From assembly GCA_016930215.1 (NCBI GenBank), contig JAFGHH010000322.1, positions 1 through 54,578 of the forward strand: a stretch of 54,578 nt of DNA, written 5' to 3'. This DNA comes from Deltaproteobacteria bacterium. GTDB taxonomy: Bacteria > Myxococcota_A > Polyangia > DRWM01 > JAAZOP01. Positions 1-33,604 of the stretch are shown in pieces (position 1 is the first letter of the stretch; the number at the start of each line of letters is the position of its first letter). Position numbers and translations under genes: made by a program. The notes beneath the pieces were generated by a model that made no database searches, was not told the origin of the DNA, and was given only the letters and a program-made list of their open reading frames with translations.

Positions 1-970
1 CGCGGTCGAGCCCCGCCTCGGCGGCGATGTCCATCGCGCGCATCGCGTCCTCGACGCGGTACGGCTTGCCCATCCGCCGCATCACGGCGGGGTCGGCCGA
101 CTCGAACGGGATCGTGATCGCGACGGTTCCGGCGGCCTTCATCCGTGCGGCGAGGTCGCGGGTCAGCAGGTGGGGCGCGATCCCCATGTCGAACCGCAGG
201 CTCAGCGGCGGGCCGCCGCGGGCGACGGCGTCGAGGAACCCCCCAAGAGCCTCCGGGGCGAGCATCACGTTGGGGTCCCAGTTGCAGAACTTCGTGATGC
301 CGTATTCCCGGCGGACGCGGTGGAGGTCGGCGGCCGCCTCGCGCGGCGGCTGGAGCACCTCGACGGGGCTCGAGGCGTTGAGGCAGAACGAGCAGCGGTA
401 GCGGCAGCCGGCGACGAGCCGGAACAGCCAGATGCGCGGGGGCTCCTCGCCCGGCGCCAGGCGGGGGAAGACCCGGTCGGCCTCCGCCCAGCGCCCGCGG
501 AACACCTCGTCGGCGCCGCTCCGGGTTGCGTGCTCGGGGAACGTCGTCGGATAGAAGCCGCCGAACCGGACACGGGCCTTCGGGAAGGCACGGCGGCAGG
601 CGGCGACGACCCGGTGCGCCGGCTCCCAGTTGAAGGTGATGCAGCAGGTGACCAGCACCTCGTCCGGCGGCTCCAGCTCCGCGAGACGCTCGTCCAGCCA
701 GGCGAAGTCGCGGCCGTACAGATGGACGTCGCGGACGAGCCGGGTCCGGTTGTCGCCGCACGGCTTCCGGGCGACGCGGGTTTCCGGGCGCAGCGCGCGG
801 TCGTAGTCGCCCTCGAGGTACCCCATCATGTCGAGCAGCCGGACCTCGTGGCCCTGGTCGCGCAGCAGCGTCGCGATCTGGTGCAGGCCGTACGGGAAGA
901 CGTCGGCGTAGGCGTACACCTGCAGCTCGTCGACGGCGAGGACGGGCGGGTTGACGAGCAGGAAGCGCAT
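1..970 (-). CDS. B12-binding-domain (class B) radical SAM protein, C-terminus cut by the window edge
   Basis: Not in the ORF track because it runs off the left edge. My manual reverse-complement translation from ATG 970..968 gives MRFLLVNPPVLAVDELQVYAYADVFPYGLHQIATLLRDQGHEVRLLDMMGY... (B12-binding-like N-domain). An in-frame LVAGCRYRCSFC (CxxxCxxC) lies at about 406..383. The frame checked at the start (781..970), the motif region (361..420) and the left end (1..61) is free of stops and mutually in phase; the rest was not translated. Confidence 0.8.
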   Translation of the reverse strand, partial: MRFLLVNPPVLAVDELQVYAYADVFPYGLHQIATLLRDQGHEVRLLDMMGYLEGDYDRALRPETRVARKPCGDNRTRLVRDVHLYGRDFAWLDERLAELEPPDEVLVTCCITFNWEPAHRVVAACRRAFPKARVRFGGFYPTTFPEHATRSGADEVFRGRWAEADRVFPRLAPGEEPPRIWLFRLVAGCRYRCSFCLNASSPVEVLQPPREAAADLHRVRREYGITKFCNWDPNVMLAPEALGGFLDAVARGGPPLSLRFDMGIAPHLLTRDLAARMKAAGTVAITIPFESADPAVMRRMGKPYRVEDAMRAMDIAAEAGLDR

Positions 971-1021
971 CGGGGGGATCCTACGACATGCGGCGGCGCC
1001 CGGATACGGCGCGCGCGGCGG

Positions 1022-2029
1022 TCAGCCCTTGCCGTCGCGGCCGAAGTCCTTGGGGGTCGGCAGGCGGACCAGGTGGGCCTCGCACCAGCCGCAGACCGCG
1101 CAGGCCCGGTCGCAGGTGGTGATCCGATCCCAGGCCTCGGGCGGCTCGCGGTAGAACGGTCCGTCGTTGGTCAGGTCCTTCATCGCCGCGTAGCGCTCGA
1201 TCGAGGCGACGATGCTCGGGGTGGGGGTGCCGCGGCCGCTGAGCTTGACCAGCTCCACCAGCCCGACCAGGTGGCGCAGATGTCCCGGGAGGATGTCCTT
1301 GATCGCCACGAGCCAGAACTGCTCGTGCTTGAGCTTGAGGCTGCAGCGGCGGCAGCCGACGTAGCCCGAGAAGGCGCCGGGCTCGGGCCAGGCGTGGCGC
1401 ACCTCGTCGTAGAGTTGGATCTGCGTGCCGTGGTTGCGTTCGGTCGGGCAGTCGGGCAGGCACTTGTCGTTGGCCACGACCCGCACGGTCAGGCCGAGCT
1501 TGCGGATGGCGCGGATGGCGTCGAGTCGCTTGTTGGCGGCGCGATGGAGCGTGATGCCGCGGCTGCCGACCTCGGACTTCCAGTACCAGGCGGCTACGGG
1601 GTCGCCGACGTGCGCGACGGTGGACGGCTGGAGCGCGAGCTTCGGCTGCCGGCGATGCAGCTCGACCGCCAGCTCGAAATCGCTCAGCGTGAAGACGCTC
1701 CGGGGGTAGGTCCCGTGGAGGCGCAGGATCTCGCGCCCCAGCAGGGTCGTGCGGTGCGGCGAGCCGAGCTGGTTGGCGACGAAGTTGAGCGGGATGCGGA
1801 GGCGGCGGCAGGCGCGGGCCAGCTTCGCCACCTGCCGGTCGTAGACGTCGGGGTCGTGCGGTCCGGTCCACGGCCGGCCCGTGTGGCAGTACACCTCGTG
1901 GACCGGGAGGTAGACCTCGCCGATGCACGCCTTCCACGGCTCGAGGACCTTCGCGACGTAGTCGGGGTCGTGGTTGTACGGCGCGCTGATGCGCAGCGGG
2001 GTGTCGAGCAGCGGCAGGCGCTTGGCCAT
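1022..2029 (-). CDS. Cys-rich hypothetical protein (possible Fe-S enzyme), family not recognised
   Basis: The 335-aa listed ORF has normal composition, unlike the overlapping Arg/Pro-rich frames. Cys motifs are KCLPDC, GCRRC and a C-terminal CDRACAVCGWC. It lies 51 nt downstream of, and co-directional with, the rSAM gene at 1..970. Confidence 0.6.
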   Translation of the reverse strand: MAKRLPLLDTPLRISAPYNHDPDYVAKVLEPWKACIGEVYLPVHEVYCHTGRPWTGPHDPDVYDRQVAKLARACRRLRIPLNFVANQLGSPHRTTLLGREILRLHGTYPRSVFTLSDFELAVELHRRQPKLALQPSTVAHVGDPVAAWYWKSEVGSRGITLHRAANKRLDAIRAIRKLGLTVRVVANDKCLPDCPTERNHGTQIQLYDEVRHAWPEPGAFSGYVGCRRCSLKLKHEQFWLVAIKDILPGHLRHLVGLVELVKLSGRGTPTPSIVASIERYAAMKDLTNDGPFYREPPEAWDRITTCDRACAVCGWCEAHLVRLPTPKDFGRDGKG

Positions 2030-2205
2030 GTGATCCTCGCGGCTCCGCCGCCCGGCGGCGGACCACTTCGGCCCATAGGGGAAACCGATCGTTCCGTCAA
2101 TCGTGCGAGCCGAACTCGGCGACTGCTCGCGGTCGGCCGCTTGACCCGGCGTGCGGCGGACTGTCAGACTCCTGGGGGCCGGGCGAGCCGGCCAGGGGAT
2201 GCGGC

Positions 2206-32404: not shown

Positions 32405-32456
32405 GGAGTCGGCACCTTCCGGCGGGCGGCGGCGAAGGCGCCGCCCCCGCCGATGG

Positions 32457-32485
32457 AAACTGTCACGCACCCCCGGGGGTGTCAA
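32457..32485 (-). promoter_or_regulatory. putative promoter (TTGACA-N17-CAGTTT) overlapping a perfect 14-nt palindrome CACCCCCGGGGGTG (32468..32481)
   Basis: Read on the minus strand about 50 nt upstream of ATG 32404. The -10 hexamer is weak, keeping only the A2 and T6 consensus positions. Confidence 0.25.
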
Positions 32486-32509
32486 GGGCGACCGGGCGCC
32501 GGCGGCGGG

Positions 32510-33604
32510 CTACTCGAGCAGCGAGTCGACGATGTCCGTCGTCGTGTCGTCATGCATCGAGATGCCGGGCAGGGCGTACCAGCTGCCGCCGGTGTTGTCG
32601 CGGATCGTGGAGTCGTGGATCCGCAGCGTGCCGTCGTGGTTGTTGCTGATGAAGAAGATCGCCGAGCCGTGCGCGTTGACCTCGTTGCGCTCGATCAGCG
32701 TCCCGCAGATCGACAGCGTCATCGTGTTGCCGTCGTTGTAGATCGCGCCGCCGCTGCCGCCGCCCGGCGTGCCGGGCTGCGCCGGGTTCGCCCCGTTGCC
32801 GATCGCCCGGTTGTGCGAGAACCGGCTGTTGAGGATCGTCCAGGAGACGCCGATCGAGCTGATGCCGCCGCCGTTCGAACAGGTGTTGCCGTAGCCCTCG
32901 GCGCCGCCGAAGGTGCTGTTGACCACGAACACCGGCCGGTCCTGGTACTGGTCGAAGACCCGGATCCCGGCGCCGCCCACGTCGGGGCCGGTGTCCGCGC
33001 AGACGTTGTTGAAGAACCGGCAGTTGACGACCTTGAACCGCCCGCCGCGGACCCAGATCGCCCCGCCGCCGTCGTACTCCGTCTCGTTGCGCGAGTCGCC
33101 GTCGGCGAAGGTCAGGTTCTGCACGGTAAGCCGCGGGTGGTCCTGGTCCTGGCAGTGCGACGTCGTCCAGTGCTGGTCGGGGTCGCAGGTGTTCATGTAC
33201 AGGATCCGCGACCGGCCGCCGCCGCTGAGCGTCACCAGCCCGCCGCCGTCGATCACGATCTCCGGGAGCGCGTCGTTGAACACCTTGGCCGGCTCGTCGA
33301 GCGTGATCGTGACCGGGTCGGGGCCGCAGTCGAAGACGATCGTCCCGCCCAAGGCCACCGCCGCGACGAACGCCTCCGCCGTACAGCTCGCCGGCGTGCC
33401 GGTCCCGACGACCGTCGTCGGGTCCGAGACGTCCCCGGGACCCGCCTCGGGCGGGATGTCGCAGTGCCCCTCGGACCAGCCCGCGGGTGGTCCCGAGGCC
33501 GGGTCGGCCAGCGGGTTGTGGAAGTAGATCCCGTGCGACTCCCCGCCGCAGCCGAAGCCGGCGGCGAGCAGGGCGACCAGGGGTGGGAAGATCGTTCGCT
33601 GCAT
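32510..33604 (-). CDS. lipoprotein with right-handed parallel beta-helix repeats
   Basis: ATG 33604 is preceded by GGGAGG. MQRTIFPPLVALLAAGFGCGG is the signal/lipobox. Repeated segments are GGGAIWVRGGRFKVVNCRFFNN, GGAGIRVF, GGGISSIG and GGSGGAIYNDGN. Confidence 0.75.
   Translation of the reverse strand: MQRTIFPPLVALLAAGFGCGGESHGIYFHNPLADPASGPPAGWSEGHCDIPPEAGPGDVSDPTTVVGTGTPASCTAEAFVAAVALGGTIVFDCGPDPVTITLDEPAKVFNDALPEIVIDGGGLVTLSGGGRSRILYMNTCDPDQHWTTSHCQDQDHPRLTVQNLTFADGDSRNETEYDGGGAIWVRGGRFKVVNCRFFNNVCADTGPDVGGAGIRVFDQYQDRPVFVVNSTFGGAEGYGNTCSNGGGISSIGVSWTILNSRFSHNRAIGNGANPAQPGTPGGGSGGAIYNDGNTMTLSICGTLIERNEVNAHGSAIFFISNNHDGTLRIHDSTIRDNTGGSWYALPGISMHDDTTTDIVDSLLE

Follow-up and report, generated by a model that had tools for sequence, protein, structure and literature searches.

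A radical-SAM-rich gene cluster around a Group VI nitrogenase-like reductase in an uncultured myxobacterium, with a tentative link to peptide maturation

What could a nitrogenase-like reductase be doing amid a dense array of genes for radical S-adenosylmethionine (SAM) enzymes? The question is raised by positions 1-33604 of contig JAFGHH010000322.1, which belongs to a Myxococcota metagenome-assembled genome (MAG) of an uncultured myxobacterium; the whole 54.6-kb contig was analysed and is referred to below as the window. In this 33-kb cluster the genes for a NifH-like ATPase and two NifD/K-like subunits (here NflH, NflD and NflK, together NflHDK) share the DNA with ten or eleven radical-SAM genes and with genes of the His-Xaa-Ser (Hxs) type. 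The answer to which we lean, tentatively and as something short of probable, is that the region is one gene cluster for the anaerobic maturation of a ribosomal peptide, in which NflHDK carries out an ATP-driven reduction.

The G+C content of the window is 70-77% along its entire length. At such values shadow open reading frames (ORFs) crowd the raw ORF lists, and genes were therefore called by third-position GC, which yielded 26 genes (g1 to g25, with g23b) in 1-33604, at coordinates matching almost exactly those of the original prediction, i.e. an earlier model-made note on this DNA. The genes fall into five strand blocks and not into the four operon-like blocks described there: g2-g1 (minus), g3 (plus), g6-g4 (minus), g7-g15 (plus) and g25-g16 (minus), with overlaps of 1-13 bp between many adjacent genes. 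The rest of the window, 21 kb to the right of the cluster, has some 20 genes, and since none of them encodes a radical-SAM protein, the density of such genes in 1-33604 is more than chance. Scans of the window for tRNA genes and Rfam families returned no matches.

The three nitrogenase-like genes, recognised as such from the beginning, all match their Pfam families:

NflH (g11), 14984..15814, plus strand: putative ATP-dependent [4Fe-4S] reductase subunit, Group VI; Fer4_NifH 252.9 bits.
NflD (g12), 15808..17853, plus strand: putative alpha-type catalytic subunit, extended at the N-terminus by about 190 residues; Oxidored_nitro 87.1 bits.
NflK (g13), 17850..19238, plus strand: putative beta-type catalytic subunit; Oxidored_nitro 130.3 bits.

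Nitrogenase-like genes in such surroundings were held in the original prediction to be without counterpart, which does not stand: Méheust et al. 2020 (bioRxiv 10.1101/765248; ISME J 14:2907) described 'Group VI' nitrogenase paralogs of Elusimicrobia with up to 13 adjacent radical-SAM genes, some of them fused to B12-binding domains, and reported homologues in 14 Myxococcales genomes, some of the loci having no radical-SAM gene nearby. The basic observation was thus already published in 2020, and the window adds little to it. That no counterpart has been characterised still holds, since a 2026 review (Chem Rev) knows of no characterised Group VI member, and Group VI is the one nitrogenase-like group in that position. 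According to the same review the functions of such systems are a main challenge, for which gene context has been of little help.

Several lines of evidence place the window in this group. In a search of 1.84 billion representative proteins the best single-domain matches of NflH (51-55% identity, 270-291 bits) were Elusimicrobia MAG proteins, the cluster members being NifH~NflD fusions of 780-792 residues; for comparison, canonical NifH in the PDB gave 205 bits and true plasmid nifH products are about 40% identical. A search with one Elusimicrobia fusion retrieved proteins of GWA2_69_24, RBG_16_66_12 and RIFCSPLOWO2_12_FULL_59_9, of which the first is one of the Group VI carriers that Méheust et al. 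2020 name. In a neighbour-joining tree (rooted on BchL and built without CfbC, MarH and BchX references) the true NifH proteins fell outside a joint clade of Myxococcota and named Elusimicrobia proteins in 188 of 200 bootstraps. None of ten nearby NifH-like proteins from the library reached the NifH or CfbC cutoff of NCBIfam, and they were therefore unusable as named references. Like the published Group VI loci of Elusimicrobia, Gracilibacteria and Myxococcales, the window combines a NifH of the same clade with divergent NflD/K that lack the FeMo-co Cys (at most four of six P-cluster Cys, no equivalent of FeMo-co Cys275) and with a radical-SAM-dense neighbourhood, in which two radical-SAM genes have a B12-binding domain over threshold; NifB is missing from those loci, as it is among the matches listed for the window, and Myxococcales hosts had already been reported. 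By these features the window belongs to the published Group VI kind. It differs from the Elusimicrobia members, in which NflH and NflD are mostly fused, in having separate genes for the two, and it adds to the published description a type-4 Hxs module, two HypB-like GTPases, an ABC ATPase and a U32-like protein.

Two side observations concern this group. Eight proteins of 570-1081 residues (P0121-P0126, P0132 and P0136) carry two or three tandem NifH-like domains and form their own branch in the tree. Locus L045, from Pseudenhygromyxa sp. WMMC2535 (GCA_011083025.2, JABJWV010000001.1 6775644-6798556), encodes a 970-residue NflH~NflD fusion and NflK, with no radical-SAM gene within 10 kb; its genome record is not labelled as a MAG (the contig measures 9.5 Mb), and this strain may be a cultured Group VI host, which the Chem Rev 2026 review says are lacking.

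Membership of the better-known families was examined with curated models. NflH stays under all cutoffs (nifH 258.4 bits against 394, CfbC 253.6 against 402, BchL 182.4 against 345, BchX 158.6 against 331), as do NflD and NflK (NifD/K-type models 24.7-34.2 bits against 486-513, BchN 29.8 against 420, BchB 26.2 against 490). Nitrogenase proper is excluded by these scores and by the missing P-cluster and FeMo-co ligands, CfbCD by the CfbC score and by the presence of two different D/K-type subunits in place of the single, homodimeric CfbD, and DPOR and COR by the lack of any BchL, BchX, BchN or BchB equivalog score.

NflH has a Walker A motif (GKGGIGKS, residues 13-20), the switch motifs, Cys100 in CAGRG and Cys136 in DVLGDVVCGGF; the two Cys, which correspond to NifH Cys97 and Cys132, are invariant in 26 orthologues. 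Among 40 NflD and 44 NflK orthologues, Cys conserved at 95% or more are limited to C192, C277 and C591 of NflD and C59 of NflK (98%), NflK C139 being conserved at 75%. NflD C277 aligns with the Cys of the 'NTC/TSC' motif of NifE and MarD, and at the matching place, that of the third P-cluster Cys, NflK has a Met. NflD Pro389 aligns with MarD Cys270, which in the MAR structure ligates the [Fe8S9C] cluster; MarD is the best PDB match of NflD, at only 40.6 bits, with NifE among the weak matches. NifB, NifX and proteins at NifE/N level were all missing from the NCBIfam matches listed for window proteins, in keeping with the original remark that nif accessory genes are absent. This pattern fits a [4Fe-4S] site as in DPOR, COR and CfbD, and not a P-cluster plus complex cofactor. 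Because the NflH motifs are kept, because only about four Cys are conserved, because of Pro389 and because no NifB-type match is listed, we read NflDK as a probable reductase and not as a scaffold or nitrogenase. The closest analogy for how the system would work is provided by CfbCD, DPOR (BchLNB) and COR (BchXYZ), which share the architecture of a two-component ATP-driven reductase with a simple [4Fe-4S]-type cluster and serve biosynthesis, not N2 fixation; the window differs from them in missing their cutoffs, in having no tetrapyrrole genes nearby and in its partner genes.

The substrate of this reductase is the harder question, and the clues to it lie at the other end of the cluster, where the following features are found:

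HxsB (g23), 30143..31729, minus strand: radical-SAM/SPASM maturase of the His-Xaa-Ser system; Radical_SAM 53.2 bits.
g23b, 31729..31926, minus strand: small HxsD-like protein of 66 residues; NF038315 HxsD_rel 59.1 bits (cutoff 41).
HxsD variant (g24), 31946..32404, minus strand: HxsD-like protein whose linker is acidic and whose C-terminal part contains a conserved peptide; TIGR03976 45.4 bits (cutoff 50).
Peptide DDPLGIAVPWEEKYG, 31988..32032, minus strand: codons within g24, residues 125-139, near-invariant.
g22, 27825..30146, minus strand: two-core radical-SAM protein; Radical_SAM 120.7 bits over two stretches, CxxxCxxC at residues 250 and 494.

HxsB exceeds the equivalog cutoff of TIGR03978 (482 bits against 370, covering 22-488 of 528) and is 35-41% identical to annotated plasmid hxsB genes. 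HxsD-like identity is somewhat less firm for g24, for whose L043 and L132 orthologues precomputed Pfam annotation gives an HxsD match; the original call of HxsB is upheld, and that of an HxsD-like gene probably stands. The N-terminal half of g22 is B12-like/AprD4-like and its C-terminal half HxsC4-like (HxsC4 119.4 bits, HxsC 80.2 bits), and the protein occupies the HxsC position after HxsB; its family is present in seven NflK-anchored and six HxsD-anchored loci. The models for HxsC (TIGR03977, cutoff 268) and HxsC4 (NF038332, cutoff 500) are reached by no window protein, the best being g22, g14 and g10, which judging from these scores are HxsC-like in kind only. The minus-strand order g25, HxsD, HxsD-like, HxsB, g22 mirrors the canonical order D-B-C-A.

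Relatives of g24 were collected in a metagenome scan with five HxsD orthologues. At least 451 were found, and 27 loci of at least 9 kb were used for comparison; these keep the order HxsD-[HxsD-like]-HxsB-radical SAM over a G+C range of 33-74%, and 13 of the HxsD-anchored loci have a gene of the g23b type. On plasmids, a search for the HxsD variant was without result. The C-terminal tail is present in 78 of 79 complete variant HxsD proteins and has, in 73 distinct proteins (median 43% identity to g24; DNA G+C 30-76%), the consensus D-[YFW]-x-[DE]-DPLGIAVPWEEK[YF]G, followed by a variable Lys-rich or acidic stretch of 6-88 residues. One of the search patterns ran up to the Trp, which leaves just the positions beyond it as the unbiased part of the comparison: E in 73/73, E or D in 71/73, K in 72/73, Y or F in 67/73 and G in 53/73. 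As an observation of its own, the HxsD genes of L047-L126 and that of the window share a near-invariant DDPLGIAVPWEEK(Y/F)G. Canonical HxsD (Aeromonas, 96 residues) has no tail. The tail may serve for docking, as a carrier site or as a second substrate. The simple idea that it replaces HxsA as the substrate was weakened by the finding that 19 of the 27 long loci with tailed HxsD also encode an HxsA-type precursor.

This precursor is a small (SHG)n-W protein with a hydrophobic, signal-like N-terminus. Among 31 distinct examples the number of Ser-His-Gly repeats is 7-29; 28 end in Trp, and eight have a twin-arginine-like TRRxFL motif. Four were compared with the NCBIfam model for HxsA4 (NF038313) and scored 63-110 bits (cutoff 55); as the precursors match HxsA4, the module can be identified as 'type 4' of Hxs, a variant that NCBI has curated and that is not yet published. 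Our literature search returned no paper on HxsC4 and none describing the HxsA4 precursor variant. Precursor ORFs are found at L073:4293-4652, L070:12969-13265, L003:15560-15904 (minus strand) and L076:17526-17957, and 27 more occur in L047-L126. The HXS anti-phage system (HxsD-HxsB-HxsC-HxsA; Nat Commun 2026, PMC13128918) is like the window in its true-family HxsB, its HxsD homologue and its order D-B-C(like), and like the relatives of the window in its His-Xaa-Ser repeat precursor with signal-like N-terminus. Unlike that system, the window has no HxsA, the HxsA4 of its relatives consists of (SHG)7-29 with a Trp end and no peptidoglycan-binding domain, HxsD is tailed and accompanied by a second HxsD-like gene, a two-core enzyme takes the place of HxsC, and the module shares its cluster with a nitrogenase-like reductase and numerous further radical-SAM genes; no link to defence was seen.

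The connection between the two parts rests on related loci. NflHDK and HxsA4 are encoded in one cluster in five of them (L003, L030, L031, L076 and L104). On the plus strand of L104 the genes run NflH (4361-5173), NflD (5170-7062), NflK (7059-8402), a radical-SAM gene (8405-9319), HxsD (9431-9970), HxsB (10192-11688) and HxsA4 (11689-12120). In L076 the order is HxsD, HxsD-like, HxsB, NflH, NflD, NflK (16166-17497) and HxsA4 (17526-17957), so that HxsA4 starts 29 bp past NflK. Because NflD and NflK of L076 are only 29-38% identical to those of the window, i.e. as distant as the Elusimicrobia ones, the Nfl-HxsA4 link is not confined to one lineage.

The wider comparison comprised 40 NflK-anchored genome loci, all from Myxococcota-type MAGs; NflK has 328 homologues, and the named ones are likewise all from Myxococcota MAGs. 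The constant core consists of NflD and NflK (39-41 loci), NflH (25) and a radical-SAM protein of the g10/g14/g18 type (22), to which B12-type radical-SAM proteins, g22, g9, g5, HxsB and HxsD are added as recurring accessories in widely varying combinations. The number of radical-SAM genes around Nfl ranges from 0 to more than 10, and some Nfl loci have none nearby; at the other extreme, L135 has NflDK pairs and nine radical-SAM genes, including one two-core and one B12 type. In L136, from a separate ENA assembly (NflK 92% identical), g9-g10-NflH-NflD-NflK-g14-g15 recur, with g16-g20 and then a TP_methylase gene on the other strand. This gene order rejects an assembly chimera for the central 20 kb, a possibility that the original prediction had itself named among its refutations. 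The left block g1-g8 is not repeated there, and L041 has only g7-g8 of it. L041 and L042 (87%) repeat g7-g13 and g16-g20 without g14-g15, the cluster of L041 ending after g20 with a GerE regulator and without Hxs genes within reach; L052 (80%) repeats HxsD, HxsD-like, HxsB, g22 and g21; and L132 (NflHDK 46-59% identical) has orthologues of g2, g9, g10, NflHDK, g22 and HxsD. The GTPase-ABC block is restricted to the nearest relatives L002, L041 and L136. Even the Elusimicrobia-type locus L046 has eight gene families in common with the window, with identities of 43-47% to g9, 51% to g11, 30% to g12, 39-43% to g13, 42% to g14, 44-46% to g15 (two copies), 40% to g21 and 39% to the C-terminal half of g22. 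The supercluster is modular but real. A polyprenyl synthase gene lies between radical-SAM genes, directly beside NflHDK, in L043 only (3861-4676, on a 5.69-Mb MAG contig).

The radical-SAM genes between the two parts, besides HxsB and g22, are the following (the Pfam Radical_SAM gathering score is 29.5 bits):

g1, 2..970, minus strand: B12-binding radical-SAM protein; Radical_SAM 47.2 bits, B12-binding 41.9; CxxxCxxC at residue 189; C-terminus truncated by the contig end.
g3, 2206..3750, plus strand: B12-binding radical-SAM protein; Radical_SAM 38.7, B12-binding 36.8; top NCBIfam match KedN5, 75.8 bits, far under cutoff.
g5, 4950..6656, minus strand: radical-SAM protein with a Cys-rich N-terminal extension; Radical_SAM 31.1 bits; weak twitch/SPASM-type NCBIfam matches.
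g6, 6664..7842, minus strand: radical-SAM/SPASM enzyme; SPASM 51.5 bits, Radical_SAM 38.1 bits.
g7, 7976..9808, plus strand: B12-type radical-SAM protein with a CX4CX2C motif; Radical_SAM 33.6 bits; B12-binding 17.5 bits, under threshold.
g9, 10665..13571, plus strand: 968 residues; Radical_SAM 16.7 bits, under threshold; no CxxxCxxC; N-terminal half with a cobalamin-radical-SAM-like fold, C-terminal half DUF483-like with four invariant Cys.
g10, 13568..14920, plus strand: HxsC/MoaA-like radical-SAM protein; Radical_SAM 44.3 bits; HxsC 62.4 bits (cutoff 268); C-terminal CxxCx5C auxiliary-cluster motif.
g14, 19238..20599, plus strand: HxsC4-like radical-SAM protein; Radical_SAM 68.7 bits; HxsC4 89.7 bits (cutoff 500); HxsC 71.0 bits (cutoff 268).
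g18, 23673..25028, minus strand: MoaA/HxsC-like radical-SAM protein; Radical_SAM 83.4 bits; weak N-terminal winged-helix hint (HTH_Crp_2 17.4 bits, under threshold).

The Pfam score is passed by ten genes with 11 cores, not by the 11 genes with 12 cores that had been counted; the difference is g9, for which the evidence is structural. A model built with 35 homologues (pLDDT 87, pTM 0.83) had OxsB as its best PDB match in Foldseek (E 1.4e-6), AprD4 being found as well, and g9 as modelled is cobalamin-radical-SAM-like in fold. Its invariant Cys are C182/C208/C211 and C649/C650/C696/C700. Foldseek with the whole model gave no match for the C-terminal half, and the literature found under DUF483 concerned unrelated DUF483x families only. 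The His/Asp-rich C-terminal tail of g9 was considered as a conserved metal-binding feature and rejected, being confined to the closest relatives. A natural fusion of a g9-type protein with a g10-type radical-SAM protein (P0412, 1307 residues) suggests that the two types act together. Of all radical-SAM genes g10, which has a conserved Cys pattern, most constantly adjoins NflHDK; a g5-type gene follows NflK in several related loci, and the family of g3, itself probably a C-methyltransferase-type B12 enzyme, is present in nine. As for g7, it scored 93.8 bits with TIGR03975, 'RiPP maturation rSAM C-methyltransferase', and did not reach the cutoff of 281. The N-terminal extensions of NflD, g5, g4, g10, g14 and HxsB had no matches in relaxed Pfam scans.

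The above can be assembled into a mechanism. HxsB and the small HxsD-like protein g23b passing their cutoffs, the D-D'-B-C(like) order, the linkage to HxsA4 and the HxsC-like radical-SAM protein beside NflHDK all favour a peptide as the substrate. The type-4 Hxs module (tailed HxsD, HxsD-like, HxsB and two-core g22) would recognise and cross-link a His-rich precursor, HxsD and HxsD-like holding the peptide and HxsB and the HxsC-like enzymes making the cross-links. The precursor itself would be of the HxsA4 type, with a signal-like N-terminus followed by (Ser-His-Gly)n-Trp, and its gene would in this genome have to lie outside the window. The peptide may be methylated by three or four radical-SAM enzymes of B12 type, which are C-methyltransferase-like, and SPASM/twitch-type enzymes, the U32-like protein and the RsmI-like methyltransferase may add further tailoring steps. 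NflH would spend ATP to push low-potential electrons into NflDK, which with its putative simple inter-subunit [4Fe-4S]-type cluster, and without P-cluster or FeMo-co, would reduce an unsaturated or heteroaromatic intermediate made by the radical-SAM enzymes, by analogy with the action of DPOR, COR and CfbCD on ring double bonds. Export of the product is hinted at by the signal-like N-terminus of HxsA4 and by the secreted proteins encoded beside HxsD (g25 here), and metal binding by the His-rich peptide together with the HypB-like GTPases. The original prediction had put forward an anaerobic tailoring pathway with ATP-driven reduction of a small molecule or peptide; this is the better supported of its two hypotheses, with the evidence favouring the peptide.

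A number of observations weigh against this reading. No His-Xaa-Ser repeat or other precursor ORF is present in any frame of the window, as the original prediction had noted for precursors in general, and HxsA4 is also absent from the 80% relative L052. Hxs genes occur within 10 kb in only five of the 40 NflK-anchored loci, a flank that would have missed the window too, where HxsB lies 10.9 kb from NflK. Conversely, Nfl genes are present in three of the 27 long loci with tailed HxsD and absent from 24. Neither HxsD nor HxsA4 was found in the four Elusimicrobia loci examined (again with 10-kb flanks), so that the Nfl core does not appear to need an Hxs module in general. The HxsD score of g24 is narrowly under the cutoff, and all HxsC-like scores are far below theirs. 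Finally, no known nitrogenase-like enzyme has a peptide as its substrate (Chem Rev 2026), and the chemical step ascribed to NflDK is a guess. Extended to the whole group, the proposal is more doubtful still: that Group VI enzymes are peptide-modifying reductases which, with HxsB/HxsC-type and B12-type radical-SAM proteins, turn HxsA4 into a reduced, cross-linked, possibly metal-binding and maybe exported product, the HxsD tail being a docking or carrier element.

Among the alternatives, the role proposed for Group VI by Méheust et al. 2020 and by the Chem Rev 2026 review has to be weighed first. NflHDK would reduce a ring double bond of a tetrapyrrole-derived cofactor, the radical-SAM enzymes and the methyltransferase would tailor the macrocycle and the GTPases would insert the metal. 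Three characterised nitrogenase-like enzymes, DPOR, COR and CfbCD, reduce tetrapyrroles, NflH scores nearly as high on the CfbC model as on that for NifH, the TP_methylase-fold protein is common to the window and the Elusimicrobia locus, Ni or Co could be delivered by HypB-like GTPases, and most Nfl loci have no Hxs genes nearby. Nevertheless, we consider this role unlikely here. The window has no tetrapyrrole core genes, as the original prediction had observed; NflH stays under the CfbC, BchL and BchX cutoffs and NflD/K match BchN and BchB weakly; and B12-binding domains mark a cofactor, not a substrate. The fold of g21 was rejected as evidence for tetrapyrroles, since its nearest structures and models are those of the rRNA methyltransferase RsmI (54.9 bits for the nearest solved structures) and not corrin or porphyrin methylases. 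A tetrapyrrole substrate would also leave the linkage to HxsB, HxsD and HxsA4 unexplained, and it is this context of the window that points to a peptide.

The two modules might, secondly, be independent neighbours, the Nfl/radical-SAM core acting on a non-peptide small molecule and the type-4 Hxs genes forming a separate peptide system that often lies beside it. Each module does occur alone (24 of 27 long Hxs loci without Nfl, most Nfl loci without Hxs), the 87% relative L041 closes its cluster with a regulator and has no Hxs genes within reach, and accessory genes differ widely among loci. Against mere adjacency speak the joint occurrence of two rare modules in at least nine independent loci with NflK identities of 38-88%, their interleaving on one strand with short gaps in L076 and L104, where the precursor comes right after NflK or HxsB, and the HxsC-like nature of the core radical-SAM protein by NflHDK itself. 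We regard independence as rather improbable.

A metallocluster assembly line, the second hypothesis of the original prediction, is disfavoured and now quite improbable. NflDK would in that case be a NifEN-like scaffold on which NflH matures a cluster supplied by a radical-SAM enzyme in the role of NifB, the GTPases bringing metal. With NifB-NifEN-NifH the window shares a radical-SAM enzyme, a D/K-like pair of the heterotetramer type and a NifH-like ATPase, and to these come two Cys-rich HypB-like GTPases, many Fe-S proteins, an orphan ABC ATPase and NifE among the weak matches of g12; what it lacks are a NifB-type match among those listed, ligands beyond about four Cys and any recipient enzyme. 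MarBHDK and IsrBHDK (Group IV-C and IV-F) are likewise nitrogenase-like reductases with an associated radical-SAM protein, which there is a NifB homologue of a kind not seen among the matches listed here; MAR holds a P-cluster and an [Fe8S9C] cluster, the latter by Cys270 and His429, whereas a proline stands at the Cys position for an L-cluster or FeMo-co in NflD. The possible metal-handling features are not general either, the His/Asp-rich tail of g9 being found only in the closest relatives and the GTPase-ABC block only in L002, L041 and L136.

Least probable of all is that NflH(DK) itself lacks any organic substrate and pumps ATP-driven electrons into the [4Fe-4S] clusters of the radical-SAM enzymes, as might be imagined from a single ATP-driven reductase among 10-11 radical-SAM genes, with a ferredoxin-domain protein in the cluster and with radical-SAM numbers that vary from 0 to more than 10, because flavodoxin or ferredoxin normally reduces such clusters, because Nfl loci without nearby radical-SAM genes exist and because the NflD-NflK pair, kept in 39-41 loci with conserved residues of its own, would not be needed for a pump alone.

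Peptide maturation, if true, would extend nitrogenase-type ATP-driven reduction to ribosomal peptides and be the first known case of a nitrogenase homologue with a peptide substrate. It makes the HxsA4 peptide a specific, clonable candidate substrate for Group VI, and L104 and L076, in which NflHDK, HxsD, HxsB and HxsA4 lie compactly on one strand, are suited to anaerobic heterologous expression. We found no report of the linkage between Nfl and type-4 Hxs genes, or of the invariant HxsD tail, in the literature searched, which does not cover all journals.

The remaining genes of the cluster are:

g2, 1022..2029, minus strand: Cys-rich protein, weakly peptidase-U32-like; Peptidase_U32 12.9 bits, under threshold.
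g4, 3859..4953, minus strand: protein with 21 Cys that has a 2x[4Fe-4S] ferredoxin domain at its C-terminus; Fer4 50.2 bits, Fer4_7 41.1 bits.
g8, 9859..10581, plus strand: protein with a weak sulfotransferase resemblance; Sulfotransfer_4 15.7 bits (cutoff 22.8); adjoins g7 and g9 in L041 too.
g15, 20632..22320, plus strand: TPR protein; TPR_2 55.3 bits, TPR_1 51.7 bits; also found in L136.
g16, 22241..23050, minus strand: ABC-type ATPase with no permease nearby; ABC_tran 41.2 bits; kept in L002, L041 and L136.
g17, 23047..23685, minus strand: Cys-rich HypB/CobW-type (G3E) GTPase; cobW 28.4 bits (cutoff 20.7), HypB 33.5 bits; motif ETAGLCDRCSP and a C-terminal CxxC.
g19, 25056..25718, minus strand: G3E GTPase paralogous to g17, with the same motifs; cobW 18.2 bits (cutoff 20.7); groups with g17 by BLAST.
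g20, 25851..27017, minus strand: predicted lipoprotein with a Cys-rich C-terminal part; no family match; N-terminal signal and lipobox-like AGAC; kept in L041 and L136.
g21, 27058..27828, minus strand: RsmI-like SAM-dependent methyltransferase of TP_methylase fold; TP_methylase 59.7 bits.
g25, 32510..33604, minus strand: predicted secreted protein or lipoprotein with beta-helix-like repeats; no family match, faint Chlam_PMP repeat 12 bits; cluster membership uncertain.

Most of these had been described correctly. The Pfam matches of the ferredoxin-domain protein, the TPR protein, the orphan ABC ATPase and the TP_methylase-fold protein hold, and the two GTPases are indeed paralogous, g17 passing the cobW threshold and g19 joining it by sequence grouping; the sulfotransferase assignment of g8 fails at its cutoff, and the two lipoproteins stand as predictions whose sole basis is their N-terminal sequences. 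The GTPases, the ABC ATPase and the ferredoxin have metal or B12 delivery and electron supply as possible roles. The weak U32 resemblance of g2 recurs in a called gene of L132, its full-length orthologue (41% identity), and L133 also has a U32 gene. The U32 family includes O2-independent hydroxylases.

In the case of g25, the place upstream of HxsD is taken elsewhere by a large secreted Cys-rich protein. Secreted proteins of about 1100-1200 residues are encoded directly upstream of the variant HxsD at L059:6298-9915 and in L056, L058, L062, L076 and L102; the one from L059, which was checked with NCBIfam, contains five 'choice-of-anchor D' domains and Cys-rich MXAN_6577-like repeats. Beside the g21-type methyltransferase gene, L136 (19383-20750) and L052 (at about 15-18 kb) have an extra Oxidored_nitro (NflD/K-like) gene that is absent from the window. 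The convergent g15 and g16 overlap by 80 bp as called (22241-22320), and since their L136 counterparts do not overlap, one of the two ends may be miscalled.

Directly upstream of g25, and on the same strand, lies a gene for a PAS-rich hybrid histidine kinase (33703-36024, minus strand), followed by one for a divergent response regulator with an HD-GYP-type domain (36193-37302, plus strand); the pair (33703-37302) may regulate the cluster. An ECF sigma factor and a FecR-like anti-sigma protein are encoded at 40807-42715. The last part of the window, 45700-54578, has a weak coding signal and mostly small ORFs without family matches, among which lie genes for an HTH_17 (excisionase-like) protein (47046-47297) and an AAA/IstB-like protein (49832-50617), and it may be the remnant of a mobile element.

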